A stretch of 64,000 nt of DNA, taken from NCBI GenBank assembly GCA_046153645.1, contig JBJXGI010000056.1, positions 16,687 to 80,686 on the forward strand. Reading direction: 5' to 3'. This document shows, in pieces, positions 48,801 through 64,000 of the stretch. The notes under the pieces were generated by a model. It saw only the letters and a list, made by a program, of their open reading frames with translations. It ran no database searches and was not told the origin of the DNA. The DNA is from Elusimicrobiota bacterium. GTDB lineage: Bacteria; Elusimicrobiota; Elusimicrobia; F11. A program made the translations under genes and the position numbers. Within the stretch, counting starts at the first letter, position 1. Every line of letters starts with the position of its first letter.

Positions 48801-49163
48801 TCAGTTGTTGATGAGTGTTTTGCGATCCTAGGTGGGTTCTTGAATAGCGCCAAATATAAAGAGCTAACCAAGGTTAAAATTCTAGCTCGTGAAGTTCCGT
48901 TTATGTATGCCCTTGAGCCAATAAAAGAAGATTCGTCGCTAACCATGAGAGGAGTTATGGATCTTGTGTATGAAGATAACAATAAAATTTTTATTCTTGA
49001 TTATAAAACCAATCAGTTAAAAGGGAAAAAACTTTCAGAAATATTGACTCACTACCAACCACAGGCCAAGATATACAAAACGGCAATAAAAAAAATATTA
49101 AACCAGGAAGCGGAGTTTGAGATTTTATTTCTAAGAGAGTCGAGTTGTCATTTGTTAAATTAG
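45891..49163 (+). CDS. addA: AddA/RexA-like UvrD helicase-nuclease
   Basis: AGAGTGKT, TFTRKAA, DEFQDT, VGDPKQSIYRFRGAD, TIHKAKGLEF, YVALTRA, G.MDL...DYKT. Confidence 0.93.
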   Translation: MKIVIDQLDRDRIISSLDENVIVMAGAGTGKTTLLIGRLLELIFVKQIPVEKIVALTFTRKAAEELRERLEDRLRDIVENPVKYGDPEKVIKLAEKALFDIPKSQIGTIHGFAGHLLRLYPLQAGVDPSFREDEGDGFHLLFESLWKEWLYVELGENAPRQEQWFKMLNEMGMDDIKLFAKNMASFSDDMSDSLKASEFKNIFIPIFSQLKELKNRMGLPKKSSGFSERFELIEKTLSQLINEGKFTKDSVEQISNLSDYVPKEWQEDEDAPIVYKKALRLLKKALLVNDKIFYELNDLLTPFINQVRKKLSQQGIIPFDSILMFTRNLLRDHLLVREALKKQYVTFLIDEFQDTDPLQGEILFYLAEVKGKSALNWRQVQLEPGRLFVVGDPKQSIYRFRGADIAAFEDFWNLMRDQGAYEAILKANFRSEPQIISAVNQIFSIGMVESSLIQPKYEELTSHLDGTLETACEIFYLQSQSDSSLSASQQREVEADAMARWIHEWVGKKCGERILEYRDIAFLLRGSHAFFPYLEAFRRYGIPYLTEGEKTFYQRPEVTEMFNLLSAILNPEDTLALVGVMRSPLGGFTDAEIFELKKSNSLDYRRKSIVLKEKTGFLFEALKELNECCLDDPLGDFIEKVFARLPVLEINFKRHDGDQSIANVLKIKRMAMDWLEKESLTLKEFVERLRDHREDEREEGENPLADAQFNAVKIMTIHKAKGLEFPVVFLPNLSASLASSKQIKPQKIFDWRTQKLGVRLPSSGMINSSMLILEEELEMKEKAEEVRVFYVALTRAKNKLMLGLKEKSRGIPPYVSILKGGKFWPHESKDFLLKDQSCITVQILEEKRPKPFKKSKDLFEINHALSPSSLAEKMSKRESDFEKLLVKKLIISPSFKMSESDSKLDDSAMFFYGNENRVSPEQSILIGHICHKVLEKWDFQILKAVHEVLKKHIYQAAHYFDFNPDNKEYESVVDECFAILGGFLNSAKYKELTKVKILAREVPFMYALEPIKEDSSLTMRGVMDLVYEDNNKIFILDYKTNQLKGKKLSEILTHYQPQAKIYKTAIKKILNQEAEFEILFLRESSCHLLN

Positions 49164-49227: not shown

Positions 49228-49304
<77 letters not shown>

Positions 49305-49357
49305 TTTAAAACATAGCTTAAGAGCACCAGGGAAAACTTAAGTCAGCTTAGAATCTC

Positions 49358-49393
49358 AAGGCGTTTCGGAGTTTTCCGGAGCGTCTTTTTTTT
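49358..49393 (+). terminator. Rho-independent terminator after tRNA
   Basis: AAGGCGTTTCGGA-GTTT-TCCGGAGCGTCTT followed by T run. Confidence 0.8.
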
Positions 49394-49523
49394 GTCCAAA
49401 GGCGAGAAAGTAGGTTACCTGTTGAGTTGGATTTATCTTTGTTTTGGCCTATTTAGCACTGTTGCCGATCAGTAAACCGATCACTTCAAATGGCCTTTCT
49501 ACTTAGGATGAAGACGAGCACCC

Positions 49524-50717
49524 ATGATAACAACAATCAATGAAAATATAAGAATTTGGAAGGAATTTAATCCTTTTGACTCAAAACGTTCTTGGGTAGA
49601 ACTTGCCTTTAATAAAGAACGTATTGCAATTAGGAATCGCTGGTTTGATGTTTTAACTCCAGGCGAGGTTGTACGTAAACGGAATAGTGACGGCTACTAT
49701 AGGGTAATTTACATCCAAATAGATTTGGAAAGTGGCGAATATTATATCGGTAAAGCCAATCGCCCCACATGGCGTGTATTAAAGCGATATCAAGGATCTG
49801 GTTTAAAATTTTCAAATAAATTCAAAATTAATGGCCATCGGTTCGTTCGTTATTACATCGCGACATGTGAAACTGCTGAGGAAACAGAACAACTTGAGGC
49901 TTCGATTGTTGATGTTGACCTTTTGTCTGACGAGAAGTGTCTAAATCTTGTTGCTGGCGGAGGTGGAACAAGTAAACATCCGTCCATAGCAGAAACGAGC
50001 GAAAAAAAACGTGAATGGATAAAAAAACATCCTGAACAATTTAAACCTATGCTCGAAGCTTCCAAAAGAGCGTTTCGATCAGGTGATACCCCAGCACTTC
50101 GCGCGCGTAGTCAAAGAATTAAAGAAACCATGAGTGCAGACAAATACCGCGAGATGACCCGAGCACGAATCATTAAGTGGATGGCTGAAAAGCCCGAGGA
50201 ATATGCTGAAGCAAGAAAGAAAAATCTTGAAAAACTCAAAACCCCTGAACGCGAAGCCAAGCGAAAGGCTAGCCTTGAAAAGTGGGTTGAGAAAAATCCA
50301 GAAAAATATAAAGCTTGGCAGGAAAAACTAATAAATTCGCGTAATAGCCAAAAAGCTATTGAAAAGAAAAAAGCATCGCTAAAAGAATGGCGCGATAAAC
50401 ATCCTCAGCAAGCGCAAGCAAATGCACAAAAAAGAGCTCAGGCCGCCGGAGCGAAACTCAGTAAAGAAGTTCAGATGCTTGATTTACAGTCAGGGCAGAC
50501 TTTAAGAGTATTTCCAAGTCAACATGCGGCAGCAAAGTGGTTGGTAGAAAATGGTAAAGCCAAAAATATGAATTGTGTTTCATCGATCAGTTCTGTTTGC
50601 TTACGGAAACCATGTACAACTGGATATGGGCATCGAAAAAAAGCTTTTGGGTATGACTGGCGTTTTACATCGGAAATCAAATCTGAATTAACACTGCTAA
50701 CAACACGGTTCACTTGA
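49524..50717 (+). CDS. GIY-YIG (Seg-like) homing-type endonuclease with NUMOD-like C-terminus
   Basis: VIY....LESGEYYIGK...YQGSG, E..E, CLNLVAGG; K/E-rich helical repeats; C-terminal FPSQHAAAKWL...GYDWRF HTH. Confidence 0.8.
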   Translation: MITTINENIRIWKEFNPFDSKRSWVELAFNKERIAIRNRWFDVLTPGEVVRKRNSDGYYRVIYIQIDLESGEYYIGKANRPTWRVLKRYQGSGLKFSNKFKINGHRFVRYYIATCETAEETEQLEASIVDVDLLSDEKCLNLVAGGGGTSKHPSIAETSEKKREWIKKHPEQFKPMLEASKRAFRSGDTPALRARSQRIKETMSADKYREMTRARIIKWMAEKPEEYAEARKKNLEKLKTPEREAKRKASLEKWVEKNPEKYKAWQEKLINSRNSQKAIEKKKASLKEWRDKHPQQAQANAQKRAQAAGAKLSKEVQMLDLQSGQTLRVFPSQHAAAKWLVENGKAKNMNCVSSISSVCLRKPCTTGYGHRKKAFGYDWRFTSEIKSELTLLTTRFT

Positions 50718-50776: not shown

Positions 50777-51895
50777 TCACTTCTTCAAGTCGGATCCGCC
50801 GTCCTTTTGTCTCTTTAGTTCATCCATCTCTTGCAGTGCCTTATCAAATATCGACATGAATTCCTTCACTTCCTGTCTTTCAATATCCGCGTCTGCGAAG
50901 AGATGCTCATCGAGGTAGGATTTGAGTTCCTTCGTAGAAGCCGTAAACACATCGTAGACCTCGTCGTTCTCGAGTGCATCGCCAAAGTTTTCAACGATCG
51001 TATTCAAGACAACCATAACACTCCACAACAACATGATGCTGACCGTAAGAGATTTTAGGAGGTTAGGCGTAGGACCAATCCAGCAGGTGAGTGTGATGTT
51101 TTTCGGATTTTCTTTGTTCTTTTGGATCGACGTGAAAGATTTTATTGCTTCGAATGTTCCGTGCGGTCCTCTCGCGCAAAAAAACGAATAGATCGGGTCG
51201 AATTTTGGCTTCCCGAGTTTCTTACGAACCTCTCCAGGCTGCATTTCTTTCTGTGCCTCCCGATCCTCTTCGGTATTGAGCCAATGTTTTACCGAGGCAG
51301 GATCGACTGTGAAAAGCTTAATCTTGTCTGAAAATTCAAGGATCGTTCGTATGTGAGAGTTCGCCTGGTTCACGAGGTAATGTTGCGAGAGGTAGTGCGC
51401 TGCCAAAAGTTCATTAATGCATCCGAATAGAAGCGTTATGCGGGCCACTCCAGCAGGACCGGTGTAATTCTTTTTTGTCACGTCTGAGGTTAGATCTAAG
51501 ACACTTTGCAGGTGCTTCTTGAACAAAGTATCCGCGTCTTTCAAGAACTTGGGCTGATCTGGCAACGGCTGCGATAACGATTTGATTGTATGTTCTGCGT
51601 TTAGGCTCGGGTTGGATAAACTCGCCAGTCCTCGTTCCATTTTCTTCCTCTGACTGGATGGCGGCATTTTGGAAACCGTCTCTGTCAATTGGGTTTCCAT
51701 ATTGTTGAGAATCGTGTCGGCCATAGCTTTACATTCATCATCCAGCTCTTGGTACTTGGTCCCCATGATTCCCAGCATGGCCTGAAGGATTTGAGTCGAT
51801 GCATCAGGCTTTGTTAGATCGACATCTTTAAGCTTCGTTCGGATAAGTTGTTGTAGTTCGGGTTTTGTAATCATTGTTTTTGATGTCGTAGCCAA
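50777..51895 (-). CDS. Hypothetical all-helical protein, DUF5677/HEPN-like
   Basis: 372-aa ORF with A...IRTILE and Y..FC....H pattern; family assignment tentative. Confidence 0.55.
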   Translation of the reverse strand: MATTSKTMITKPELQQLIRTKLKDVDLTKPDASTQILQAMLGIMGTKYQELDDECKAMADTILNNMETQLTETVSKMPPSSQRKKMERGLASLSNPSLNAEHTIKSLSQPLPDQPKFLKDADTLFKKHLQSVLDLTSDVTKKNYTGPAGVARITLLFGCINELLAAHYLSQHYLVNQANSHIRTILEFSDKIKLFTVDPASVKHWLNTEEDREAQKEMQPGEVRKKLGKPKFDPIYSFFCARGPHGTFEAIKSFTSIQKNKENPKNITLTCWIGPTPNLLKSLTVSIMLLWSVMVVLNTIVENFGDALENDEVYDVFTASTKELKSYLDEHLFADADIERQEVKEFMSIFDKALQEMDELKRQKDGGSDLKK

Positions 51896-52036: not shown

Positions 52037-52402
52037 ATGCCTGGTAGGCCATTCAAGTCTGGAAACACGGCGGCGGTGGGGCACGGGCGACCAAAAGGGT
52101 CCAGTCGTGTGCTGACGTGCCGGGAGTTCGCGGAGAAGGAAGGATTCCAGCGGCTGATCGGCCTTGCGCGCGGAGAAAGCTATCGGGTCAAGAGAGATGG
52201 GAAGGAGATCGATCTATATCCTGATCTCGATTTAATCTTTGAGGCGCTCAAGCTGCTGCTGGCCTACGGCATCGGGAAGCCCGCTCAATTGCTGAACGTG
52301 ACGCACAACGTCGATTCACTCGCTGATTGGGCACATAGATATTTTGCAGCTGTCCATTCCCCACCGCTTGAACAAATCGACCAGAAAGAGAAATCAGAAT
52401 AG
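52037..52402 (+). CDS. Terminase small subunit-like protein (DUF5681-type N-terminus)
   Basis: PFKSGN....GRPKGS N-terminus and LL.YG.GKP.Q...VTH C-terminal pattern. Confidence 0.65.
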   Translation: MPGRPFKSGNTAAVGHGRPKGSSRVLTCREFAEKEGFQRLIGLARGESYRVKRDGKEIDLYPDLDLIFEALKLLLAYGIGKPAQLLNVTHNVDSLADWAHRYFAAVHSPPLEQIDQKEKSE

Positions 52403-52535
52403 GAAGCGCCACAACTCTTTCCGAAGCTATCAAGCCATAAATCAAATCCCATTAGCGTAGCCAACAGGCGCTAGACGGATCGATCCAAAACAGATCTGAT
52501 TACTATCCAAAACCAAAATAGACCCAGTCAGGGCA

Positions 52536-53315
52536 TTGGTTTCGGACTCTATGGCTCGAAAAGTAATCAATCAAACACCACTAAGTAGTGATTTAAAAAC
52601 GATTTCCGAATTCGTTTCGGTTCGGGAATTAATATTCGAAATTCAGAAAACCAGAAAGAAAAGCGAAGAGGTAATTGAGGTCAGCGACGGGAACGATGGA
52701 TGGACTCCGACTGGAAATACGGGAGATTTCCACGTCCAAGAGCGGATAGAAGGGATTGATTATTTGTTGAAGTACAAGGTCATTTCAAAACAAAAACAGG
52801 TTAAGAAAAATGGAGTTATAAAATTTCGACTAAAAATAAATCCGAAGCCCTTTGCTGCGTTGTCAAAAATAATTGACGAATCAATAGAAGAGGATAAAAG
52901 GCAGAGAGCTAAGATAAATCCTTCTTCGGTTCAATTATCCCTCCGGCGACAATCCAAATTGGGAAAATCAAATCCTGCCCCCAATAGAATAAGCCTAATT
53001 CACAAGCCAAAACCATCAATTCCATGCAAGCTAATGCCTGATGCAATTAGAATCGGAAATCAAACTCACAAGCTTGGTCGTCCCGAGGTTCGATTCTTAA
53101 TTCAATATGCCTTTGAGAAGACGCTATCCGGTGAAAGCGAAATCTCAAAGCATCTTGCTTTTAGGTATTTGAAAAATAGACGACAGTGCACGATCGCGCA
53201 ATTCAGTGATGTGTTCCGAGGTAAGAGGCACATTTGGCGGGCCCTTTTCCAAGAAGCATCGAACAATAGGCACTTTCGCATTAAAGACGAGATACAGATC
53301 GTCAAGCCGAGTTAA
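52536..53315 (+). CDS. Hypothetical basic protein, possibly DNA-binding
   Basis: 259-aa K/R-rich ORF; no recognised motif. Confidence 0.55.
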   Translation: MVSDSMARKVINQTPLSSDLKTISEFVSVRELIFEIQKTRKKSEEVIEVSDGNDGWTPTGNTGDFHVQERIEGIDYLLKYKVISKQKQVKKNGVIKFRLKINPKPFAALSKIIDESIEEDKRQRAKINPSSVQLSLRRQSKLGKSNPAPNRISLIHKPKPSIPCKLMPDAIRIGNQTHKLGRPEVRFLIQYAFEKTLSGESEISKHLAFRYLKNRRQCTIAQFSDVFRGKRHIWRALFQEASNNRHFRIKDEIQIVKPS

Positions 53316-53519
53316 TTTTTTTCGATACGCCTCTCCTTCTCTAACCTTCCCTCCTCACTTTCTCCGCAGTAACTAAATCTTCGCGCCCTTTCTTTCTCGT
53401 AAACCTCCACTGGCTTTCGCTGGGTTTTTGCTTTGTTTCTGCTTTGTATCTCTGGTTGAGCAAACAATCCGGAAGGTCCATTATCGTGCTCAAGTGAATT
53501 ACATGTGAGGAGGATGCGA

Positions 53520-53732
53520 ATGAAAGAATTGATGAGTGTTCAGGAAGTTCTGTCTTGCTTGAGAATTTCATCGAGCACGTTACGTGAATGGGATAGGAAA
53601 AGAGTCTTGCCAGCAAAAAGGAACCAATTCGGATGGCGGTTATATGCATTCGAAGACGTTAATCGAATCAAATGCAAGTTGAATTACGATCGTCCAGACG
53701 GGAAGAAGTTTTTTCATGCAGGGAATAAATAA
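53520..53732 (+). CDS. MerR/Xis-like HTH protein
   Basis: SD GAGGAGG; LMSVQEV...LRISSSTLREWD...RNQFGWRLY..EDV. Confidence 0.85.
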   Translation: MKELMSVQEVLSCLRISSSTLREWDRKRVLPAKRNQFGWRLYAFEDVNRIKCKLNYDRPDGKKFFHAGNK

Positions 53733-53753
53733 TTTAAATCTAAGGAGAATGAG

Positions 53754-54377
53754 ATGAAAGAAGATGAGATCAAAAGCGATGCAAGTCAGAACATAAATAA
53801 TGATGAAACCAATGCGGCGGCGGATATCGATCTTGAAAAGCTCCGACTAGGCCAAAACTACGCTGAAATAGGAGGAGTGAAAAAGAAAGTCCTTAATATT
53901 AATGTTAAGCGACCGCATAAGCAGCAATTTTTTCAGACACACCCCGATGAGTCATTCCGGATGACGACCTATATTCTGGAGTACAAGGGCGAAGGTGAAA
54001 GTGAAAATTATTTGATTGATCCTAGTTTATGGGAAGAGCTCTCATCTGAAATAGTTCCAAAAATTCTTTTCACTGTTATTTCCCGCCAGGGTGATATCTC
54101 ATTGTGGCCAATACGTATGCCTGGAAAAGATGGACGGCAAGATAATTGGAGTCGTTCAGCGCTGGATGGCGCTCATGCTGCAATGAAAGAGTGGGTTCGG
54201 CTTAATCCAAATAAAGCAGTTGGTAGCTATGAAGTATTTATTCCTCAGGGTGAGTTATCCGGCCCCGAATGGCCCAACATAACTTTCCAGGAAATCTTAA
54301 ACATCGCATTTAAGGATCGTTACATTAGGAATGTGGATCACCCCATTCTCAAAAAGCTTCGAGGGGAATCAATGTGA
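53754..54377 (+). CDS. PolA-associated hypothetical protein (possible ssDNA-binding/replication accessory)
   Basis: SD AAGGAG; 4-bp overlap with polymerase gene; aromatic-rich core. Function inferred from position only. Confidence 0.65.
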   Translation: MKEDEIKSDASQNINNDETNAAADIDLEKLRLGQNYAEIGGVKKKVLNINVKRPHKQQFFQTHPDESFRMTTYILEYKGEGESENYLIDPSLWEELSSEIVPKILFTVISRQGDISLWPIRMPGKDGRQDNWSRSALDGAHAAMKEWVRLNPNKAVGSYEVFIPQGELSGPEWPNITFQEILNIAFKDRYIRNVDHPILKKLRGESM

Positions 54378-56092
54378 GCTATAGGTCAATTTGGTGCGTG
54401 GATTTTGAATATCAACACGATCCTGGGGAAAATCCTTCACCAGTGTGCATGGTGGCAAGAGATATTCTCAGTGGGGCTAAATATCGGGTGTGGCGAGAGG
54501 AATTAAATTCGATGAAGCTCCCACCCTATGATTTGGATTCCAATAGCCTTTTCGTGTGTTTCTATGCCCCGGCCGAATTAAGTTGCCATTTGGTACTGGG
54601 TTGGCCATTTCCGACCAACATTCTTGATTTATTCGCGGAGTTCCGAAATAAAACCAATGGACTTAATCCAAATTGTGGAAATGGATTAGTTGGAGCTCTT
54701 GCCTATCACGGAATCGATTCGATTGGGGCCGCCGAAAAAGACGCCATGCGACAAAAAATAATGTCCGGTGGGCCATGGTCTGCGGAAGAGAAGCAGGAGA
54801 TTCTCGATTATTGTGAGTCTGATGTGATTGCCCTTGAGCGATTGATGGGAAAAATATTCGGTGAAATTGATATTCCGCGGGCGCTCCAACGCGGACGGTA
54901 CATGAAAGCGGTCAGCAAAATCGAGCATTGCGGAGTTCCTATTGATCTTGAGTTGTTAGGACGTCTGAAGCATGAGTGGGATGGGATTAAGGACCAGCTA
55001 ATAAAAAATGTTGATTCAAAGTATGGAGTGTTTGAAGGTTCATCATTTCGCTCTGATCTCTGGGGTAACTGGCTTATTAAAAACAAGATCCCCTGGCCCC
55101 GTTTGGATTCAGGGAGACTAGCATTGGATGACGAGACGTTTCGTCAAATGGCTAGAGCTTATCCGACTGTAGCTCCAATTAGAGAGTTGCGTGATTCACT
55201 GTCAAAAATGCGGCTAGCTGATCTTGAGGTCGGCGTTGATGGAAGGAATCGATGCATGTTATCGCCCTTTCGGAGCAAAACAGGACGTAACCAGCCCAGC
55301 AACAGCAGATTTATTTACGGTCCCTCCGTTTGGTTGCGGGGACTTATAAGGCCCGAAAATGGGATGGCGATCGCTTATCTTGACTGGTCCCAGCAAGAAT
55401 TTGGCATCGCTGCTGGTTTGTCGGTTGATCCCGTAATGATGGAAGCCTATTCAAGCGGCGACCCCTATTTAGCATTTGCAAAACAAGCCGGTGCTATTCC
55501 ACCAGAAGGAAGTAAGGAGACCCACTCAGCCATACGAGATCAATTCAAAGCCTGTGTGTTGGCCGTGCAATATGGGATGGGGGAAATTTCACTGGCAACT
55601 CGATTAGGGCGGTCAATTGAAAGAGCCCGTGAGCTACTGACGTTACACCGAAAAACCTTTAGGAAATTCTGGGCTTGGTCCGACGCTGTCCAGGATTACG
55701 CCATGCTTCATAATCGACTTTGGACAACGTTTGGATGGAATTTATTTATTGAGGATAAATCGAACCCGAGATCACTTCGGAATTTTCCGATGCAAGCCAA
55801 TGGAGCTGAGATGTTGCGATTTGCGTGTTGTTATCTGACGGAGGCGGGTATTCGTGTTTGTGCGCCGGTTCATGACGCCATTTTGATCGAAGCGCCGGCA
55901 AACGAAATTGAAGAAATAACGAGATTTTCTCAGGCCTTGATGGCGAAAGCCAGTGAGGTCGTTTTAAGTGGTTTTTCTCTCCGTTCGGATGCAAAGATCG
56001 TCCGATTTCCAGACCGCTATCAAGACCCAAGAGGCAAGGTGATGTGGGATGAGGTGATGGGATTGCTCACTTATGAGACAGCTTCCTGCTGA
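54374..56092 (+). CDS. Phage-type family A DNA polymerase (3'-5' exo plus polymerase, no 5' nuclease)
   Basis: ExoI VDFE, ExoIII YCESD, TGRN, motif A DWSQQE, motif B R...K...L...YG, RNFPMQA, motif C VHDA. Confidence 0.92.
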   Translation: MSYRSIWCVDFEYQHDPGENPSPVCMVARDILSGAKYRVWREELNSMKLPPYDLDSNSLFVCFYAPAELSCHLVLGWPFPTNILDLFAEFRNKTNGLNPNCGNGLVGALAYHGIDSIGAAEKDAMRQKIMSGGPWSAEEKQEILDYCESDVIALERLMGKIFGEIDIPRALQRGRYMKAVSKIEHCGVPIDLELLGRLKHEWDGIKDQLIKNVDSKYGVFEGSSFRSDLWGNWLIKNKIPWPRLDSGRLALDDETFRQMARAYPTVAPIRELRDSLSKMRLADLEVGVDGRNRCMLSPFRSKTGRNQPSNSRFIYGPSVWLRGLIRPENGMAIAYLDWSQQEFGIAAGLSVDPVMMEAYSSGDPYLAFAKQAGAIPPEGSKETHSAIRDQFKACVLAVQYGMGEISLATRLGRSIERARELLTLHRKTFRKFWAWSDAVQDYAMLHNRLWTTFGWNLFIEDKSNPRSLRNFPMQANGAEMLRFACCYLTEAGIRVCAPVHDAILIEAPANEIEEITRFSQALMAKASEVVLSGFSLRSDAKIVRFPDRYQDPRGKVMWDEVMGLLTYETASC

Positions 56093-56170
56093 ATAAGTGG
56101 ACAGGGGCCTGGTTCATTTTGACACACCCGTCTAAGTAATTAAGAGAGATCAGTAAGAGGGATTATATTT

Positions 56171-56536
56171 ATGAGTGATATAGATATTGAAACCATGAGG
56201 ATACCCACAAAGATTGACGTTGGGATAACGGAAGTATCTGAGAAAAAATCTTTAGAAAACAAACCCGCAGCATATATCAGGAGAATGCCTTTAGATTGGG
56301 CCAGAAGGGCTGGAATACTTAGAGGAAAAGCTCTGTTTGTGGGCTGTGAATTGTGGTTTTTGGCGGGAGTAAATAAATCCAGACGTTTTCCGTTCAACCT
56401 TTTCAAAGTTGCAAGAAAACGAAATGTATCACGAGCTTCTTTGTCGCGTGGGTTAACGAGTTTAGAGAAAGCCAAATTAGTCAAAGTCGATCGAAAACCT
56501 GGCTGTCAATGTATGGTCGAGGTGTTGGAGATATGA
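56171..56536 (+). CDS. Winged-HTH hypothetical protein
   Basis: VSRASLSRGLTSLEKAKLVKV.RKPG wHTH pattern. Confidence 0.65.
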   Translation: MSDIDIETMRIPTKIDVGITEVSEKKSLENKPAAYIRRMPLDWARRAGILRGKALFVGCELWFLAGVNKSRRFPFNLFKVARKRNVSRASLSRGLTSLEKAKLVKVDRKPGCQCMVEVLEI

Positions 56537-56545
56537 AAGAGATTT

Positions 56546-57121
56546 ATGTTCAAAAATATTGAAAATTTAAAATTTAAAACAGTTGTCTGTGATCCACCTT
56601 GGCAATTCAGAAGGCAACCAAAGTCCGTCGGTCCAACTTATAACCTGCTCACCTTGGATGAGATTAAATTGTTTCCAATAAGAGACATCTCCGATGAAAA
56701 TGCACATCTTTACTTGTGGATTCCTAATGCCTTCATCAAAGAGGGTGTGAGCGTAATGGAAGCATGGGGGTTTTCATACAAGACGGTTATCACGTGGGTA
56801 AAGCACCAAGTCGGGGTAGGCAACCATTTCAGGAACTCTAGTGAGCAAATCTTATTTGGTGTCCGTGGACGATTGCCATTATTACGCCGGGATCTTCGCA
56901 CCTGGTTCCTGGCCGATCGGCGCCAACATAGTCGAAAGCCGGATGAGTTCTATCGAATTGTGGAATCAGCTTCTCCTGGGCCAAGGATCGATGTTTTCTC
57001 CCGCGAAATGCGTCACGGCTGGGCGCAGTGGGGCGATGAGTGTAATTTTTTCAATCAAAAAATAACGGAGGAAAATTATGCCAGCAACAATGTCGGAGCA
57101 AAACCAACTATTAACGGCTAA
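56546..57121 (+). CDS. MT-A70 family adenine methyltransferase
   Basis: DPPW, HLYLW, WGFSYK..ITWVK, E..LFG.RG, HSRKP, D.FSR...GW..WG.E. Confidence 0.93.
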   Translation: MFKNIENLKFKTVVCDPPWQFRRQPKSVGPTYNLLTLDEIKLFPIRDISDENAHLYLWIPNAFIKEGVSVMEAWGFSYKTVITWVKHQVGVGNHFRNSSEQILFGVRGRLPLLRRDLRTWFLADRRQHSRKPDEFYRIVESASPGPRIDVFSREMRHGWAQWGDECNFFNQKITEENYASNNVGAKPTING

Positions 57122-57284
57122 GCAAGCAGCCGAATTTCTGCGTGTGTCTATTTTCACTTTGTATGGGTGGACCAGCGCTGGAAAAATTCCACACCGAAAG
57201 GTCGGCAGTCTCTTGCGGTTCGATGTGAACGAGCTGGTGGAATGGACCAAGTCCAACGGCCAGATGGGGATAAAAACTGCTTGA
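57078..57284 (+). CDS. Excisionase-like HTH_17 protein
   Basis: LLTAKQAAEFLRVS..TLY.W...GKIP..KVG..LRF...EL..W. Confidence 0.88.
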   Translation: MPATMSEQNQLLTAKQAAEFLRVSIFTLYGWTSAGKIPHRKVGSLLRFDVNELVEWTKSNGQMGIKTA

Positions 57285-57348
57285 TCAAGCATCCTGATCT
57301 GATCAATGATCAGTCATTCGCTATGTTTCGCCAGAGAGGTATGAGTTT

Positions 57349-58416
57349 GTGGGAATTAAGCTGATTGATATCGAAAAAAAGAAATACCGGATTGCCTTTT
57401 GGTTTAAGAAGAAGCACTACACCAAGGTGGTCGCCGGCAATAAAAAGTTGGCGGAAGCTGTTGAAAGGCAGATGATAGCTGCTTTGGAGGAAGGTCGTTA
57501 TTTCCCGCAGCGCCAATTTAAGGACCGCACATTTGAAGAGGTGGCCGACGTTTTTATACGGGATTGTCCCACCTTCAAAAAGTCAGCTCATAAAGTTGCG
57601 ATCTATGCTCGGAAGATGAAATTGTTTTTCAAGGGAAAGATGATTAAGGATATTCAATCCAGCGACGTGGTTCGTTTGAGAGAATATCTTGATCAAGATA
57701 TGACTCCAGTATCCACAAACCATTACCACCGGGCGTTACGCAGGCTTTTTAATTGGGCCATCCAAGAAAAACTCCATCGGGGAGATAACCCTGCATCTGG
57801 AAAATGTGTCCCATTGGAAAACGAGCGTCCATATTGGCGGAAAGTTTTTTTGAATGAACATCAACTCGGGAGACTACTTGATGATTGTGAGGATCGGTTG
57901 CGGCCCATTGTTTATTGCGCTGTTTTAACTGGAATGCGTATAGGCGAGCTGAGGCGGATGAAGAAAATCGACGTCGATCTGGATAGTTGTGTGATTCAAA
58001 TTCCCGAAAGTAAAAATGGGGAGTCCGGTTGGATTCCGATTCCCGAAAAACTCTATGAGGTTTTATCTCCGATCGTAGCTGGGCTTGAAAACAATACTGA
58101 CTTGGTGCTCGATTTCAAGAATTTTGAACGGATGTGGAAACGCGCTCGCCAAAAGTCCAATCTTCAACTCCACTTCCATGACCTGCGTAGGACCTATGGA
58201 TCTCATTTAATGATGAAAACAGGAAACCATGGGACAGTGCAGACCCTATTGCGTCACAAGTCACCGGCCATGACGGCGCGTTATGCTCATTTAGCTCCAA
58301 ACTTTCTCAGGCAATCTGTCCTAACTTTGGATGGCCTCTTTCCGTCTTCGAAAGACAAAGTTTCTATTACTGCCCAGCTTCCATCTGCACCGCCGGTAGT
58401 TGAAAAAACAGGGTAG
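57349..58416 (+). CDS. Tyrosine recombinase/integrase
   Basis: TGMRIGE (R), SKNG (K), FHDLRRT (HxxR), LRHKS (H), RYAH (Y). Confidence 0.95.
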   Translation: MGIKLIDIEKKKYRIAFWFKKKHYTKVVAGNKKLAEAVERQMIAALEEGRYFPQRQFKDRTFEEVADVFIRDCPTFKKSAHKVAIYARKMKLFFKGKMIKDIQSSDVVRLREYLDQDMTPVSTNHYHRALRRLFNWAIQEKLHRGDNPASGKCVPLENERPYWRKVFLNEHQLGRLLDDCEDRLRPIVYCAVLTGMRIGELRRMKKIDVDLDSCVIQIPESKNGESGWIPIPEKLYEVLSPIVAGLENNTDLVLDFKNFERMWKRARQKSNLQLHFHDLRRTYGSHLMMKTGNHGTVQTLLRHKSPAMTARYAHLAPNFLRQSVLTLDGLFPSSKDKVSITAQLPSAPPVVEKTG

Positions 58417-58419
58417 CAC

Positions 58420-59892
58420 GTGGTCCTACAATTTGATTCCCCGCAATCAAAGGATCAACTCCCTGACCTGAAAAAATTTCAGGAAAAAATCATTCAAGAT
58501 CCCGGGTTTTTTCTCCGTGAATGTCTTGGGCAAAACCCCTGGGAAATGGAAATCAAAATCATTGAGTCGGTCCGGGATAATCCCAAAACGATGGTGGCAG
58601 GCTGTGTTTCGTCTGGTAAGACCCATGCGACGGCAGGGCTCGTATTCTGGTGGTTAATGGCCTTTGCACCGATGGCGCGTATTTTTTGCCTTGCCCCTAC
58701 TGAGCGGCAACTCAAAATCAACCTCTGGCGCGAAATCCCTCGGATGCACAGCGCGTCTCGAATCAGACTGGGCGGTGAAATGATGCCGCTCTCCCTCCAA
58801 TATCGGCTCGGAGACGATTGGTATGCGCTTGGATTTAGCCCTCAGGACCAAATGGGAGTATTCGGTATCCACGGGCCTCATGATTTGATTGTCATCGATG
58901 ATGCCCAGGGATTGAAGCAAGAAATTTGGGAGGCGCTGGAAAATGCGATGGCCGGTGGCACCACTCGGCTTCTGGCTTCGTGCAACCCTGTTGTGACGAG
59001 CGGAGAAATTTATGAGGCCATGACATCTAAACGCGGGAAATACAACGTCATTCGGATCCCCGCGGCCATCACGCCCAACGTGAAAGAGGGCAAGATCATA
59101 ATCCCGGGGATGATTACCAAAGAAACTGTTGATCGTTGGGTTCAAGAGTATGGAGAAGACTCAGATTTTGTCAGAACTAAAGTAAAAGCCCTCCTGCCGA
59201 AACAAGAACCCGACACCCTTATCCCATTAGATTGGATTGAAGCCGCAATGGTGCGAGAAGCTGAAGTGTCAAACGAATATCCAATTCTCGGCGTGGACGT
59301 CGCCCGGTTTGGCGATGATCGAACGGTTATCTTTCCTATCCAGGGTCTAAAAGCGTTGGACCCAATCATCCTTCAAGGGGCTGATACTATGGAGGTGGCA
59401 GGACGGGTTAAATTTGAGATGGAAAACCACAAGGCTGGTGCGGCATTTGTCGATGTCATCGGAATTGGGTCTGGAGTCTGTGACCGATTAGCTGAGCAGG
59501 GGGTGATTGTTTATCCCGTAAATGTGGCGTCAAAGGCCCGCAATGAGAAAAAGTTCGTCAATCTTCGAAGTGAGGTGTGGTGGGCGGCGCGTGAAGCATT
59601 GGATCCCAAAAACCAAAATATATTTGCGTTGCCCAATAACAAACACTTGATGGCGGAGTTGGCAGCATCGAAATTTATTGTTGATTCATCTGGTCGAATT
59701 CGAGTCGAACCCAAAGACGATATGAAAAAACGTCTTGGCCACTCGCCCGATTTGGCCGATGCGTTCTGTTTGGCCATGTATGGTCGGTATGTTCTGCAAT
59801 ACAACGCGTACTTCGCTAATCATCTCATCCAAGATGATGGATATTTTATCGACACCGAAGGGTTCCCAGTGGGAACATTTGAGGCGGTATGA
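58420..59892 (+). CDS. Terminase large subunit
   Basis: Walker A SGKT, APT..Q, Walker B IVIDDA, NP, nuclease GVDVARFGDD, D..GIG.GV.D.L, SPDLADA. Confidence 0.9.
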   Translation: MVLQFDSPQSKDQLPDLKKFQEKIIQDPGFFLRECLGQNPWEMEIKIIESVRDNPKTMVAGCVSSGKTHATAGLVFWWLMAFAPMARIFCLAPTERQLKINLWREIPRMHSASRIRLGGEMMPLSLQYRLGDDWYALGFSPQDQMGVFGIHGPHDLIVIDDAQGLKQEIWEALENAMAGGTTRLLASCNPVVTSGEIYEAMTSKRGKYNVIRIPAAITPNVKEGKIIIPGMITKETVDRWVQEYGEDSDFVRTKVKALLPKQEPDTLIPLDWIEAAMVREAEVSNEYPILGVDVARFGDDRTVIFPIQGLKALDPIILQGADTMEVAGRVKFEMENHKAGAAFVDVIGIGSGVCDRLAEQGVIVYPVNVASKARNEKKFVNLRSEVWWAAREALDPKNQNIFALPNNKHLMAELAASKFIVDSSGRIRVEPKDDMKKRLGHSPDLADAFCLAMYGRYVLQYNAYFANHLIQDDGYFIDTEGFPVGTFEAV

Positions 59893-61292
59893 ATGCCTGG
59901 GATGATGTCGACGATCCCGTTGGAATTGGTCCGATTCATATCAATCGCCTAAATGAAGCTGCCCTAAAAAATCCAAAAAAATCGGCTCCCCTAATTCCGA
60001 AAACTTTGGATATTGAGGTTACGCCAGACTATCAGCAAATTGTCGAATGGTTGAGTACCGACTCTCCGGTTGTTTTTGTAACGGGGAAGGCTGGCACTGG
60101 AAAATCAACCTTAATTCAATACATAAGAGAGAAATTTCAGGGGAACTCCGTTGTTGTAGCTCCGACTGGTGTTGCGGCACTTAATGTAAATGGAGTAACC
60201 ATCCATTCTTTTTTTCGGTTTCCGCCCAGAATCGTCACTGACGATGACATTAAATTGGTCCGAGATAGAAGTCTATACCGTGCGCTCAAGCTTCTGATCA
60301 TCGATGAAATTTCAATGGTAAGGGCTGAAGTGATTGATGCCATAGATAAATTTCTACAGAGGAATCGCGAAAGTTCGGAACCATTTGGTGGGGTCAAACT
60401 TTTATTGGTCGGTGATCTATTCCAGTTGCCGCCAGTCCTTCAACATCGTGATGCCGTTGCTCTTAAAACTATGGGTTACCAAAGCCCATATTTCTTCAGT
60501 GCAAAAGGATTGATGCAATCGCAGATGGTGTCCAAAGAGTTAACGAAGGTTTATAGGCAAAAGGATGTTGGATTTATCTCCATCTTGAATAAAGTTCGAC
60601 GGGCCGAAGATATTGAAGGTGCCTTACAAAAGCTGAACCAGCGACACATGAAACCTGATAAGGACAATGAACAATGTATCACGTTGGCGGCAACGAACAG
60701 GGTGGCGGACGAAATTAACGATACGAAACTGGGGAAATTACCGGGCCCCCCGCAAACCTACGGTGGTGAGGTATCAGGAAAATTTGTCGTTCACGACGAA
60801 AGATTGCCCTCACCTATTAATTTATCGCTCAAAGTTGGCGCAAGAGTGATGTTCACCAAAAATGATGAAAAAAGGCGCTGGGTCAATGGGACACTTGGTC
60901 GGGTCGTGGGCCTTGAGAAGGATTTAATTCGCGTTGAGGTGACAGAAAATAACCATCGTGAGATTTACGAGGTCGATAGGGTCATATGGGAATCCTATAA
61001 GTATGAATATGATCATGGGACAGGCATGATCGTTCCCGAGACTACGGGTTATTACATACAGTTCCCATTGATGTTGGCTTGGGCGGTCACCATCCATAAA
61101 AGTCAGGGAAAAACACTGGATCACGTTCGCTTGGATTTAGGTTCGGGGGCTTTCGATTACGGGCAGGTTTATGTCGCGTTAAGCCGCTGCCGGTCACTCA
61201 ACGACATCTATTTAGCAAAACCCATCCTGGAAACAGACATTAAGTGCGACCCCGTCATCCGACGGTTCTATGAGGCTCTGAATTCTCAATAG
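59889..61292 (+). CDS. PIF1/RecD-like SF1B helicase
   Basis: TGKAGTGKST, APTGVAA, TIHSFF, IDEISMV, PFGG, GDLFQLPPV, YRQ, QFPL.LAWA.TIHKSQG, GQ.YVALSR. Confidence 0.94.
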   Translation: MNAWDDVDDPVGIGPIHINRLNEAALKNPKKSAPLIPKTLDIEVTPDYQQIVEWLSTDSPVVFVTGKAGTGKSTLIQYIREKFQGNSVVVAPTGVAALNVNGVTIHSFFRFPPRIVTDDDIKLVRDRSLYRALKLLIIDEISMVRAEVIDAIDKFLQRNRESSEPFGGVKLLLVGDLFQLPPVLQHRDAVALKTMGYQSPYFFSAKGLMQSQMVSKELTKVYRQKDVGFISILNKVRRAEDIEGALQKLNQRHMKPDKDNEQCITLAATNRVADEINDTKLGKLPGPPQTYGGEVSGKFVVHDERLPSPINLSLKVGARVMFTKNDEKRRWVNGTLGRVVGLEKDLIRVEVTENNHREIYEVDRVIWESYKYEYDHGTGMIVPETTGYYIQFPLMLAWAVTIHKSQGKTLDHVRLDLGSGAFDYGQVYVALSRCRSLNDIYLAKPILETDIKCDPVIRRFYEALNSQ

Positions 61293-61980: not shown

Positions 61981-62940
61981 ATGACTGAGAATTTAATTGA
62001 TCCGGTGGTTCTGTTTTTTGTCTTGGGGCTCTTGGCGGGTCTTGTTAAGTCCAATCTTCGTTTACCAGACGCGCTTTATGAATCGTTAAGTATTTATCTC
62101 TTACTGGCTATCGGTCTCAAAGGTGGGGTCGAACTGGCCAAGACTGAGATTTCATCCATCCTTTTACCAATGGCGGGGGCGTTGGCGTTAGGCGTCATCA
62201 TCCCTGTTATTGCGTACGGAGTCTTGCGGAGTATGGGAAAATTCTCACGGCCCGATGCGGCGGCGATCGCGGCCCATTATGGATCGGTGAGCGCCGTTAC
62301 TTTTGCCGTTGCCCAGTCATTCTTGGATCGGCTCCTGGTTCCCTTTGAAGGGTTCACAACCGTTTTACTGGTGGTGATGGAGATTCCGGCCATAGCGGTT
62401 GGGATTCTTATTGCCCGGATCAAGACGGCCAAAGAACCGTTGGCGCGCGGGCGATTAATTCACGAGGTTCTTCTCAACAAAAGCGTTTTTCTTTTGGTGG
62501 GAGGACTCCTGATCGGAACCCTCGTGGGCCCTGCAAAGGTTGGTCCTGTCACCATCTTGTTTTTCGATTTTTTCAAAGGGGCGTTGGCTTTTTTCCTTCT
62601 GGAAATGGGCATTGTGGCCTCTCAAAGATTGGGCGATCTTAAGAAAGTGGGGCCTTTTCTGGTTGGTTTTGGCATTTTGATGCCGCTTTTTTCTGGACTT
62701 TTGGGGACATTGGTGGGAGCAGTGGCAGGATTGTCGATTGGGGGCACGGCTCTATTGGCTACGCTAGCCGCTAGCGCCTCTTACATCGCGGCCCCGGCCG
62801 CCATGCGGATTGCTGTACCGGAAGCTAACCCGACCTATTATCTGACCGCTTCTTTGGGAGTGACCTTTCCCTTTAACTTAACCTTTGGGATCCAGATCTT
62901 TTATTGGATGTCTCGAATGGCACATGGGTGGATACGATGA
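61981..62940 (+). CDS. sbtA: Sodium-dependent bicarbonate transporter SbtA family (DUF897)
   Basis: SIYLLLAIGLKGG, AAHYGSVSAVTF, FLLEMG, ASASYIAAPAA, SLGVTFPFN. Confidence 0.92.
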   Translation: MTENLIDPVVLFFVLGLLAGLVKSNLRLPDALYESLSIYLLLAIGLKGGVELAKTEISSILLPMAGALALGVIIPVIAYGVLRSMGKFSRPDAAAIAAHYGSVSAVTFAVAQSFLDRLLVPFEGFTTVLLVVMEIPAIAVGILIARIKTAKEPLARGRLIHEVLLNKSVFLLVGGLLIGTLVGPAKVGPVTILFFDFFKGALAFFLLEMGIVASQRLGDLKKVGPFLVGFGILMPLFSGLLGTLVGAVAGLSIGGTALLATLAASASYIAAPAAMRIAVPEANPTYYLTASLGVTFPFNLTFGIQIFYWMSRMAHGWIR

Positions 62941-63245
62941 AAATAATTAAACAGAAACTGCTTACGGTGGTCACGGAACGAGCTATTGAGGATTTGATTC
63001 TCAAAGACATGAAGCGCCTCGGCGCAAAAGGCTACAGCCTTGTCGAGTCGCGCGGCGAAGATCATCGCGGTCTCCGCCATGCGGAATGGGAAGCCAACCG
63101 CGATGTGCGAATTGAGGTCCTCTGTGAAGAGGCCATTGCCCGTTCGATTGTCGAGCACCTCTCCAAAACATACTACGACGATTACGATATGACGATTTTC
63201 ATGTCCGACGTTGATGTGTTTGTCCGGAAAGAGAGGCCAATATGA
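62937..63245 (+). CDS. sbtB: SbtB PII-like regulator
   Basis: KLLTVVTE..IE...GAKGY....RG.....R...W.....RIEV; ATGA overlap with sbtA. Confidence 0.85.
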   Translation: MKIIKQKLLTVVTERAIEDLILKDMKRLGAKGYSLVESRGEDHRGLRHAEWEANRDVRIEVLCEEAIARSIVEHLSKTYYDDYDMTIFMSDVDVFVRKERPI

Positions 63246-63258
63246 ATGATCAAATTGG

Positions 63259-63666
63259 GTTTTTCCGACGGGCATCCCCAATAAAGGGGTGGTGTTAACC
63301 GGAGCACGGCCATCTTAAACCCCATCGCGATGTGTTGGCGGGTCGCACCATGCTTGTAAAAAAGACACGCGCCATTCCCATCGAATGCGTGGTAAGAGGT
63401 TATCTGGCTGGGTCCGGATGGAAAGAGTATCAACAGTCGCGGTCCATCTGCGGCATTCCTTTGCCACCCGGCCTGAGGGAATCCGAGCAGCTTCCCAATC
63501 CCATCTTCATGCCCTCAACCAAGGAAGAGACGGGCCACGATATAAATATTAGTCAAGAAGAAATGGCTCGACGTATCGGAGAAAAACTAACCCAAGAGCT
63601 GAAAGAAGCAAGTCTTGCTTTTTACGCGTTGGCGAGCGATTACACGAAATCACGCGGATTCTTCTC
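63259..63666 (+). pseudogene. purC: purC (SAICAR synthetase) remnant
   Basis: VFPTGIPNKGVVLT in one frame, then LAGRTMLVKK...IECVVRGYLAGSGWKEY...PSTK...GHDINI in another. N-terminus missing; ends before the DTKFEFG motif. Confidence 0.88.
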
Positions 63667-64000
63667 GGGGTCATGCAAGTTATTTGGGTGTAAATTCCCT
63701 GTCATCGTAGGCTGAAAAATCAAGCGGCCTTGAGCATTTCTTTGGCGCCATTAAGTCGGCGCTTGGTCCAACGTTTTTCCTGTTCGGTTGAAACACTCCA
63801 GACAAGTTTCCATTGTTGAGTCGTCAAGTGGTGGGCCTTGTTGAAAGTTGAAAGCCTTTCAGCAAGAAGTTGACGATTGGATTGGCCCATTTCCTTTTCC
63901 GTGTGATGAGATAAATGGACTCAAAAATCTGAGTCGGGTTTTTCTTGCCGATAATAACGAGAGAGTTTTTGGGCAGACTCATCGCCACGGTGTAAGCGTT
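63667..64000 (-). mobile_element. Probable IS end (IS256/ISLre2-like terminal repeat and transposase C-terminal remnant)
   Basis: GGGGTCATGCAAGTTATTTGGGTGTAAATT starts where purC similarity stops. A minus-strand frame ends ...KEMLKAA* at 63720 and has an internal TGA. Confidence 0.5.

Follow-up and report, generated by a model that had tools for sequence, protein, structure and literature searches.

An Elusimicrobiota integrative element with a large terminase gene, a small-terminase candidate and no recognisable capsid genes

As far as the sources cited here describe them, the known phage satellites either borrow the large terminase subunit (TerL) of a helper phage, as do P4, the phage-inducible chromosomal islands (PICIs) and the PICI-like elements (PLEs), or bring a whole head, as do the capsid-forming PICIs (cf-PICIs) and the Streptomyces satellites. 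In the account of PMC10085698, PICIs carry a small terminase subunit (TerS) or a capsid-remodelling gene, typically without other phage genes. The cf-PICIs and the Streptomyces satellites MulchRoom and MiniFlayer are described as encoding TerS and TerL plus capsid, portal and connectors (PMC10085698, PMC10690885). The tycheposons of Prochlorococcus are reported to use terS or a major capsid protein (MCP) gene as packaging genes, and the PICI-like ones among them to be without cargo (bioRxiv 10.1101/2020.12.28.424599). The virion-encapsidated integrative mobilizable elements (VEIMEs) are reported with TerS homologues and 'motor-like ATPases' (PMC9618062), and the archaeal SRCE satellites, which parasitise spindle-shaped archaeal viruses, with an MCP and/or an unrelated ATPase. 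Full-text searches of the literature did not bring up any satellite that has both TerS and TerL and lacks capsid genes, a point on which the supplementary tables of the bioRxiv reports could still bear. Here an integrative element with TerL, a TerS-like gene and no recognisable capsid gene is described from a 64,000-nucleotide stretch of an Elusimicrobiota genome (the window).

The element lies at the end of contig C18 (80,686 bases) of the source assembly G000, window position 64000 being the contig end. G000 is a metagenome-assembled genome (MAG) of 2.63 Mb in 105 contigs, with 39.0% GC and 99.7% completeness by marker genes. An earlier note on this DNA, made from the letters alone, had proposed a capsid-less element at 52037..61292 with both terminase subunits. 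The layout that it proposed holds, but the extent does not: by analogy with a sister element (L016, below), the left end is probably the tRNA-Met gene at 49228-49304, so that two further genes, one GIY-YIG-like and one DUF5677-like, are counted with the element on the same analogy, and the right end lies beyond the contig. The integrative element is thus at least 14.7 kb long, from the tRNA-Met to position 64000. Between 52037 and 61292 the open reading frames (ORFs) form an unbroken series on the plus strand with short gaps or overlaps and intact core ORFs, which agrees with the co-oriented, tightly packed run that had been noticed. Families were searched in Pfam, PHROG and NCBIfam for the window ORFs, with the following result:

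49228..49304, + strand: tRNA-Met(CAT), probable attL (ARAGORN; Rfam RF00005, 62.7 bits; 81-bp repeat in L016)
49305..49488, + strand: conserved non-coding stretch adjoining the left end; terminator-like hairpin at 49358-49387
49524..50717, + strand: 397-aa protein with a Lys/Glu-rich helical region and a weak GIY-YIG nuclease-like N-terminus (PF01541, E 7.9e-4, below the curated cut-off)
50777..51895, - strand: 372-aa accessory protein, helical and DUF5677-like (nothing matched in Pfam, PHROG or NCBIfam)
52037..52402, + strand: 121-aa TerS candidate (no Pfam, PHROG or NCBIfam match; proposed from family position, fold and predicted complex)
52536..53315, + strand: 259-aa orphan (no family match; one relative, at 76% identity, in 5.8 billion clusters)
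53505..53732, + strand: MerR-type helix-turn-helix (HTH) regulator (MerR_1 PF13411, E 1.4e-7; a MerR gene in the same slot of L016)
53754..54377, + strand: 207-aa protein whose 3' end overlaps the polA start (no match in Pfam, PHROG, NCBIfam, Atlas or the PDB)
54374..56092, + strand: family A DNA polymerase (PolA) with an N-terminal 3'-5' exonuclease-like part (PF00476, DNA_pol_A, 3.2e-22; phrog_17, 3.8e-43)
56171..56536, + strand: 121-aa protein that may be a winged-helix DNA binder (MarR_2 at E 0.014 and related matches, all sub-threshold)
56546..57121, + strand: MT-A70 family DNA adenine methyltransferase (PF05063, 1.8e-23; phrog_359, 6.2e-53)
57078..57284, + strand: excisionase-type HTH protein, Xis (HTH_17 PF12728, 2.5e-12; TIGR01764, 2.6e-9)
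57349..58416, + strand: tyrosine integrase, Int (Phage_integrase PF00589, 6.5e-26; phrog_1, 6.7e-57)
58420..59892, + strand: TerL, ATPase plus RNase H-like nuclease (phrog_2, 2.6e-34; no Pfam match)
59889..61292, + strand: PIF1/Dda-like SF1B helicase (PF05970, 7.6e-29; Dda-like phrog_325, 9.5e-85)
61981..63245, + strand: sbtA (61981-62940; Sbt_1 PF05982, 2.4e-117) and P-II-like sbtB (62904-63245; P-II PF00543, 3.3e-16)
63299..63715, + strand: purC pseudogene fragment (positions 90-209 of the 297-position purC model, then unrelated residues)

These matches bore out the MerR, PolA, MT-A70, Xis, Int, TerL and PIF1 identities that had been read from the sequence; a winged-helix protein at 56171-56536 could not be confirmed, the MarR_2 match staying below threshold. 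For the polymerase, further support came from NF011540 (exonuclease/polymerase, 1.2e-22) and from Pol I matches in the PDB from E 6.8e-12. No portal, capsid, protease, tail or lysis family of the three libraries matched any ORF between 49.5 and 64 kb. Therefore no structural gene was recognised ahead of sbtAB, as had been stated; sbtAB, however, which had been described as unrelated, are probably cargo of the element.

The relatives of the element were searched through TerL, by a scan of one genome per species from which the best 80 of 542 confirmed loci were taken, and 16 window proteins were compared with 95 loci by tblastn. Only one of the 95 loci, L016, shared more than TerL with the window. 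Its host (G317) is an Elusimicrobiota MAG of the same family and a different genus. Between the window and L016 the amino acid identity is 82% for the 121-aa TerS candidate, 79% for MT-A70, 82% for Xis, 58% for Int and 91% for TerL. L016 is bounded by two full tRNA-Met(CAT) genes (823-899 and 18697-18773), which form an 81-bp direct repeat of 98.8% identity with about 17.8 kb between the copies. Its genes begin with a 1028-aa DUF4379/CapR endonuclease-like gene, the homologue of the TerS candidate (124 aa, 4221-4595), MerR, a RepA-like initiator, a DnaB-type helicase and a primase zinc-ribbon gene; MT-A70, Xis, Int, an unassigned 179-aa gene and TerL follow, and the cargo consists of OEP, AcrB (RND efflux), EamA, DUF6428, an ArsC-like phosphatase and ArsR. 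Among the L016 ORFs nothing matched a portal, capsid, protease or tail family, and none of the unassigned ones is of portal size.

Comparison of the two elements gives a conserved core of TerS-like gene, MerR, replication module, MT-A70, Xis, Int and TerL, with cargo behind it. The replication module is PolA/PIF1 in the window, where PIF1 lies on the cargo side with sbtAB and the purC fragment, and RepA/DnaB/primase in L016; the cargo is likewise swapped. The earlier note had suggested a search of other genomes for PolA, Int and TerL in synteny without portal or capsid. In L016, which has no PolA, the genes for the TerS-like protein, MT-A70, Xis, Int and TerL are all retained with no structural gene among them, and the capsid-less layout of the window is not a local accident. 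At the left end, the tRNA-Met gene and the stretch behind it (window 49228-49488) are 84% identical to L016 823-1085, whereas the upstream host flanks differ. The hairpin in this stretch has 13 pairs followed by a T run.

The large terminase was modelled with AF2 from 42 homologues (pLDDT 90.5). The best PDB match of the model was full-length Sf6 gp2 (1.5e-20), followed by D6E, HK97 and T4 gp17 (to 5e-13), and crystal structures of single ATPase or nuclease domains were also matched well. The window protein retains every one of the 29 columns that are invariant in the 42-sequence alignment, including the Walker A K67, the Walker B D160 and the nuclease acidic residues D293, D345, D444 and D447. 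An ASCE ATPase and an RNase H-like nuclease are therefore predicted in one chain, and TerL is genuine and looks functional.

The comparison of the terL genes of the window and L016 indicates strong purifying selection, judged from the substitution pattern. The proteins are 91% identical with dN 0.060, and dS is saturated (not computable by NG86). Codon positions 1, 2 and 3 differ by 7%, 4% and 54%, and a different synonymous codon is used at 227 of the 427 identical residues. TerL is the most conserved protein common to both elements; Int reaches only 58%. Relaxed selection, which would point to decay, was thus not found, and decay is disfavoured because TerL has stayed 91% identical despite saturated synonymous change and a swapped replication module and cargo.

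The origin of this terminase was traced among 3516 TerL homologues (E 1e-3 or better, 8000 scored candidates). Relatives at 30-40% identity normally have a portal gene behind TerL: a portal follows in L039, L021, L122, L163, L164, L198, L199, L069 and L031, and after an inserted gene in L130, and portal or head genes accompany TerL in L046, L125, L128, L064 and L091. The best match of a metagenome scan was 44% (L116, on a 3.7-kb contig). Scans of IMG/VR with the window TerL and alignment A2 gave matches of at most 37%, and a scan with P0041 of at most 35%; scans with the clade members P0027, P0013 and P0057 reached L282, L283 and L367. A FastTree phylogeny of 154 TerLs was built from 92 of 229 loci (at least 32.5% identity, ORF of 400-700 aa), four added phage loci, the 59 proteins P0002-P0060 and the window. 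The window, L016, L116, L197 (on a long branch) and the 59 context-less proteins fell on one side (SH-like support 97). On that side, context was available from IMG/VR for L282 (46% identity, 44,355-bp contig), L283 (45%) and L367 (42%, 42,570-bp contig). In these three TerL is followed by a portal, behind which come genes for protease, head or capsid; in L367 there are connector and tail genes too, and TerL is preceded by a TerS. Ordinary phages about 43 kb long thus make up at least part of the clade. A phage origin of the packaging genes is clear, and the TerL of the element was captured from that lineage, because the nearest relatives with known context besides L016 (42-47%) are complete phages.

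A rival reading is that the locus is a decaying prophage remnant, from which head, tail and lysis genes had been deleted while the rest was not yet degraded. The complete phages L282, L283 and L367 fit such an origin, as do the pseudogene fragment and the mosaic GC after PIF1. This reading was nevertheless considered quite unlikely, since the same structure-less layout occurs in two elements whose TerLs are 91% identical across saturated synonymous change, the core ORFs are intact and tightly packed, and L016 keeps both att copies.

The small-terminase candidate was analysed through its protein family. An exhaustive search gave 36 representatives at E 1e-3 or better, all but one of 88-155 residues; P0148 (2714 residues) was left out of the family alignment A3. 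The family features are an N-terminal G-x-G-R-P-K-G-S motif, a helix, a hairpin and a Y-G-x-G-K-P motif. The family profile was searched against 23,468 ORFs of 446 loci, every one of which had been fetched for holding a TerL. Besides the sister element (L016, also fetched as L200), six distinct places were matched. In five of the six (L116, L198, also fetched as L099, L235, L242 and L054) the match abuts or overlaps the TerL start, and in L281 it lies about 1 kb upstream of TerL. L198 and L054 have the canonical order with a portal downstream of TerL, directly so in L198. With about 50 ORFs per locus this adjacency is informative, and by gene order the family is assigned to the small-terminase slot. 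Its members thus lie upstream of TerL, as a TerS gene would; in the window and L016 the distance between the two genes is about 6 kb.

Structural comparison pointed weakly in the same direction. The AF2 model of the 121-aa protein had a pLDDT of 77. In Foldseek against the PDB the top 10 rows were all small terminases of SF6 (SPP1-like), but at E 0.06-0.2. VIA-align placed the same four SF6 TerS entries first (Z 4.6-5.2, against 3.6 for the next), with an rmsd of about 5 A over 53-64 residues. Of the top 50 BFVD rows, 13 carried the name small terminase and one the name DUF5681, none of them with an E below 0.0099. The TerS family phrog_2538 was matched by one of 37 family members, and the family profile searched against PDB sequences gave a spurious repeat-protein match only. 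A complex of TerL with the 121-aa protein was predicted with a score of 0.66 (runs 0.63, 0.66 and 0.69), against 0.00 for the best of three controls; 116 of 157 solved complexes attain this mark, compared with 2 of 215 mismatched pairs, both counts being rough because own alignments were used. The runs share at least 55% of contacts with a partner pLDDT of at least 61. In the predicted interface the C-terminal helix of the 121-aa protein (93-105) lies on the N-terminal domain of TerL (14-17, 35, 80-84, 115-119 and 130). The model supports TerL binding, although the score may reflect likeness to a solved TerS-TerL complex. The proposal that both terminase subunits are present is thus a reasonable reading: TerL has the full fold and the TerS-like gene is backed by the slot of its family, a weak fold likeness and the predicted complex, but it has no library match and the reading is not proven. 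Four ORFs of the run (121, 259, 207 and 121 aa) have no significant family match; the profile and structure searches suggested for such orphans gave this TerS-like signal for the protein at 52037-52402 and nothing for the 207-aa protein.

Structural genes were also searched in the whole host assembly. PF04860 (portal) and PF05065 (HK97 capsid) matched nothing on the 105 contigs of G000, with working positive controls, and tblastn of 131 portal, head and tail proteins from TerL-linked loci gave no G000 match at E 1e-3. The phrog_2 search of G000 returned the TerL of the element only, plus one marginal match. The searches with phrog_113 and phrog_1005 were empty and were discounted, as their controls were silent too; an iterative phmmer labelling of portals reached only 78 of 229 loci and was not taken as a measure of absence. 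The claim that no portal or capsid gene accompanies the element is therefore upheld for the whole 99.7%-complete assembly, the contig end apart.

The contig end raises the alternative that structural genes follow past position 64000, so that the window copy would be a complete small temperate phage or else a capsid-forming satellite. The contig stops 2.7 kb after PIF1, and the second tRNA-Met is absent from the assembly, the element being truncated by assembly: the one match, of 23 nt at the end of contig C20, belongs to a different tRNA. No att-like repeat was found within 49-64 kb of the window either. In the phage relatives, however, the portal directly follows TerL, where the window has PIF1, sbtAB and the purC fragment; moreover, the bounded L016 has no structural genes, and none were found on the 105 contigs. 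This alternative was regarded as very improbable.

The cargo side is foreign DNA, and the gene run before it also differs from the host in composition. The GC content is 45.7% in 52037-61292 against 38.6% in window 1-49000, and about 0.50 in sbtAB against 0.39 for the genome. The host has a second sbtA (G000, C76:31679-32605), which is 45-46% identical in amino acids to that of the element (45% by tblastn), and an sbtA match was found in 1 of 11 other genomes of the family. The purC fragment is 48% identical to the intact host purC on C7; it is foreign and was probably brought along from a former host. By analogy with tycheposons, the cargo side looks like material taken from a former host.

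These features might also suit a tycheposon-like cargo island in which the terminase pair has another role, such as occupation of the portal or DNA cutting in defence, or DNA processing for, e.g., vesicle transfer. The cargo genes and the purC fragment of foreign origin recall what the tycheposon report describes for cargo and for picked-up flanks, an intact and conserved TerL fits any selected function, satellites are described as interfering with helper packaging (PMC9618062, PMC10690885), and no helper prophage was found in G000. Such a role was still considered unlikely. Self-packaging calls for what the element has kept, namely a cognate TerS-like partner predicted to bind TerL, Xis/Int and an autonomous replicon; a mere decoy could do without a subunit for DNA recognition; and no published example of a defence-only terminase was found in the literature searched.

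The best explanation, held with middling confidence, is a satellite-like element that depends on a helper and uses its own terminase to package itself. It is preferred because the bounded L016 is structure-less, terL is under purifying selection, G000 is without structural genes and modules are swapped as in PICIs and tycheposons. What was directly established is which genes are present, how the att sites of L016 are built, that the packaging genes are conserved and under purifying selection, and that structural genes are lacking; helper dependence, packaging and the order of events we infer. Excision at the tRNA-Met repeat would be the work of Xis and Int, and amplification that of PolA and PIF1, to which the 207-aa and 259-aa proteins might contribute. 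The 121-aa TerS-like protein might then mark the element DNA and recruit its own TerL through the C-terminal helix. TerL would dock on the procapsid portal of a co-resident or infecting helper, for which the lineage of about 43 kb that was the source of the terminase is proposed, and would package the element DNA with the adjacent cargo. MT-A70 methylation might protect or mark the packaged DNA. The cargo (sbtAB here, RND efflux and arsenic genes in L016) would pay the host for carriage.

Helper candidates can be named. The obvious ones are the contigs of 41-45 kb that encode several of the closer TerLs (58-67% identity). In addition, the host of L016 carries a separate prophage on contig C3 of G317 (about 109000-140000; L450 and L451) with portal and tail genes and a tRNA-Gln nearby. 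It encodes a 711-aa portal-MuF-type protein (PF04860, 3.2e-54) and a tail protein matching that of L367 at 2.6e-66; its portal is only distantly related to that of L283 (22% identity, E 1e-13). This prophage is a possible helper for L016. A divergent 494-aa ORF in its TerL slot is not detectably a member of the present TerL family (weak hhalign match, probability 9%; no PDB match).

Several points weigh against the self-packaging satellite. The support for TerS is indirect, with no Pfam or PHROG match, Foldseek E of at least 0.06 and VIA Z of at most 5.2. A resident helper prophage was not found in G000. Structural genes beyond 64000 are possible for the window copy, whose right end is unassembled, and MAG binning can lose phage contigs. 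The layout is backed by a single close relative with known context, L016. The integrase gene lies in mid-element and not beside an att site. Several of the P0002-P0010 TerLs (58-70% identity) are on contigs of 41-45 kb, the size of the phages L282 and L367. Pieces of the element were found in Logan contigs from three studies, of biofilter, drinking-water and freshwater-sediment metagenomes; among these contigs of low depth (about 1-7) no joints or usable loose ends were found.

Similar portal-less islands were found beside other TerLs. L196, in another Elusimicrobiota genome, has Xis, Int, a ResIII helicase, a DnaB-like gene and TerL. In L075 and L082 (Planctomycetota) an integrase and a primase lie beside TerL, and L048 (Sedimentisphaerales) has a ParB-methylase, TerL and a large serine recombinase. 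L033 (Verrucomicrobiota), on a short contig, has a ParB-methylase and TerL. L077 (CPR, Andersenbacteria) has a DUF3987 primase-helicase, a DnaG zinc ribbon, a methylase, TerL and a short integrase, and then SNF2/PLD and Eco57I-type genes. The eight rows labelled as islands need at least 3-4 label changes on the TerL tree, and the integrases of the other islands showed no relation to the window Int detectable by tblastn. The terminase-island architecture seems, on this phylogeny, to have arisen more than once.

The element probably represents a lifestyle variant with its own terminase but no shell genes, spreading via helper phage shells. A wider proposal is more tentative and somewhat doubtful: satellites with TerS and TerL but without shell genes might be a recurrent, undescribed strategy, with several origins from different phage terminases (Elusimicrobiota, Planctomycetota, Verrucomicrobiota and CPR), hijacking helper procapsids with their own motor and shuttling adaptive cargo. 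If true, a motor-only element would be a third solution beside the two outlined at the start, competing for phage procapsids at the portal, and the docking of TerL on the portal would be exploitable across genomes. Genes for carbon uptake and metal resistance would also gain a further means of transfer in little-studied phyla, Elusimicrobiota among them. 'Orphan terminase' matches in MAGs should accordingly not be taken simply as prophage debris.

Some further observations concern the edges of the two elements and their accessory genes. Directly upstream of the tRNA-Met, window 42967-49163 holds AddB/AddA-type helicase-nuclease genes (PDDEXK_1, UvrD) at 34-38% GC; this is ordinary host DNA, the left chromosomal flank. 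Promoter and terminator scans did not exceed the shuffled expectation. The Atlas neighbours of the 372-aa protein are bacterial hypothetical clusters, some of them DUF5677, at TM 0.5-0.67; the protein is accessory and not structural. The 207-aa protein is presumed to be a replication accessory, from its position only. The 1028-aa protein of L016 (987-4073) has nine DUF4379 treble-clef zinc-finger repeats, a CapR homology domain and HNH/homing-endonuclease PHROG matches, and its gene takes the position that the GIY-YIG-like gene has in the window, just inside the left end. An empty site for L016 was sought in five relatives: the left flank had no match, and the right flank gave paralogous ATPase genes and one 148-bp non-coding match. 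This match (L016 18784-18931 against G281, C18:40919-41066, same genus) has 81% identity and no tRNA nearby; the stretch, which lies just outside the right tRNA-Met, may have a conserved regulatory role ahead of an ECF sigma factor.

Two groups of TerL relatives deserve mention in their own right. Among the best 80 of the 542 genome loci, most come from chromosomes of Dehalococcoidia/SAR202 in which a portal stands immediately behind TerL (33-40% identity). In L031 (2728-5569) and L021 (9938-12698) cellular genes come after the TerL-portal pair (MS channel, Na/H exchanger, arylsulfotransferase). A TerL-portal pair that lacks a recognisable head module could be widespread and conserved in Dehalococcoidia. 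In the Elusimicrobiota genus g8 (e.g. L102-L115), which belongs to the class of the window, 71 of 77 small genomes (1.2-1.9 Mb) match the nuclease half of TerL (residues 264-453) at about 40% identity, which is unusually uniform for a prophage gene and may reflect a domesticated or vertically kept element.

Comparison with the known systems, as far as the cited reports describe them, showed both similarities and differences. Like PICIs, the element has an integrase and an excisionase, a MerR/AlpA-type regulator slot, autonomous replication, a TerS-type gene, no capsid, a size of 10-20 kb and accessory genes. PICIs use the TerL of the helper, whereas this element has its own; they replicate with Pri-Rep, whereas this element has PolA and PIF1; and their int is terminal, whereas it lies in mid-operon here, in a host of the phylum Elusimicrobiota. 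The presence of TerL and the replacement of Pri-Rep by PolA and PIF1 place it outside the PICI gene set as defined in PMC10085698. With cf-PICIs, MulchRoom and MiniFlayer it shares, in a small integrative element, both terminase subunits as captured from phages, the small one here being a candidate. Those satellites are described as encoding a portal, a major capsid protein, a protease or scaffold and connectors, but none of these was found in the window element or L016, and the own capsid, portal, protease and connectors that mark cf-PICIs were likewise not found in G000. The portal and MCP of a temperate tailed prophage are missing as well, although the contig end leaves the window copy formally open in this respect.

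As in the Caudoviricetes TerLs (Sf6 gp2, D6E, HK97 and T4 gp17), the TerL model has the two-domain fold, the Walker A and B motifs and the nuclease acidic residues. Unlike in Caudoviricetes, no portal follows terL: the neighbour is PIF1 in the window, and in L016 the 179-aa gene before it and cargo after it, while the TerS-like partner is at a distance. The element resembles VEIMEs and SRCEs, in the accounts available, in being small and integrative or plasmid-like, with replication genes and an incomplete morphogenesis module; no TerL is reported in those accounts for either, and the SRCE ATPase is unrelated.

The likeness to tycheposons, as reported, comprises a tyrosine recombinase, tRNA integration with tRNA repeats, swappable replication modules (polymerases, primases and helicases), nutrient-acquisition or resistance cargo and the carriage of foreign flanking material. 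For example, L016 is flanked by two tRNA-Met copies, and the window element starts at the same tRNA. Unlike tycheposons, the element has TerL, keeps packaging genes and cargo together, and belongs to another host phylum and habitat. Its polymerase is of family A, whereas pipolins use a family B primer-independent polymerase. The earlier note had held that the combination fits neither PICIs nor cf-PICIs nor pipolins; set against the descriptions cited here, this is borne out by a TerL present without a capsid and by a family A polymerase.

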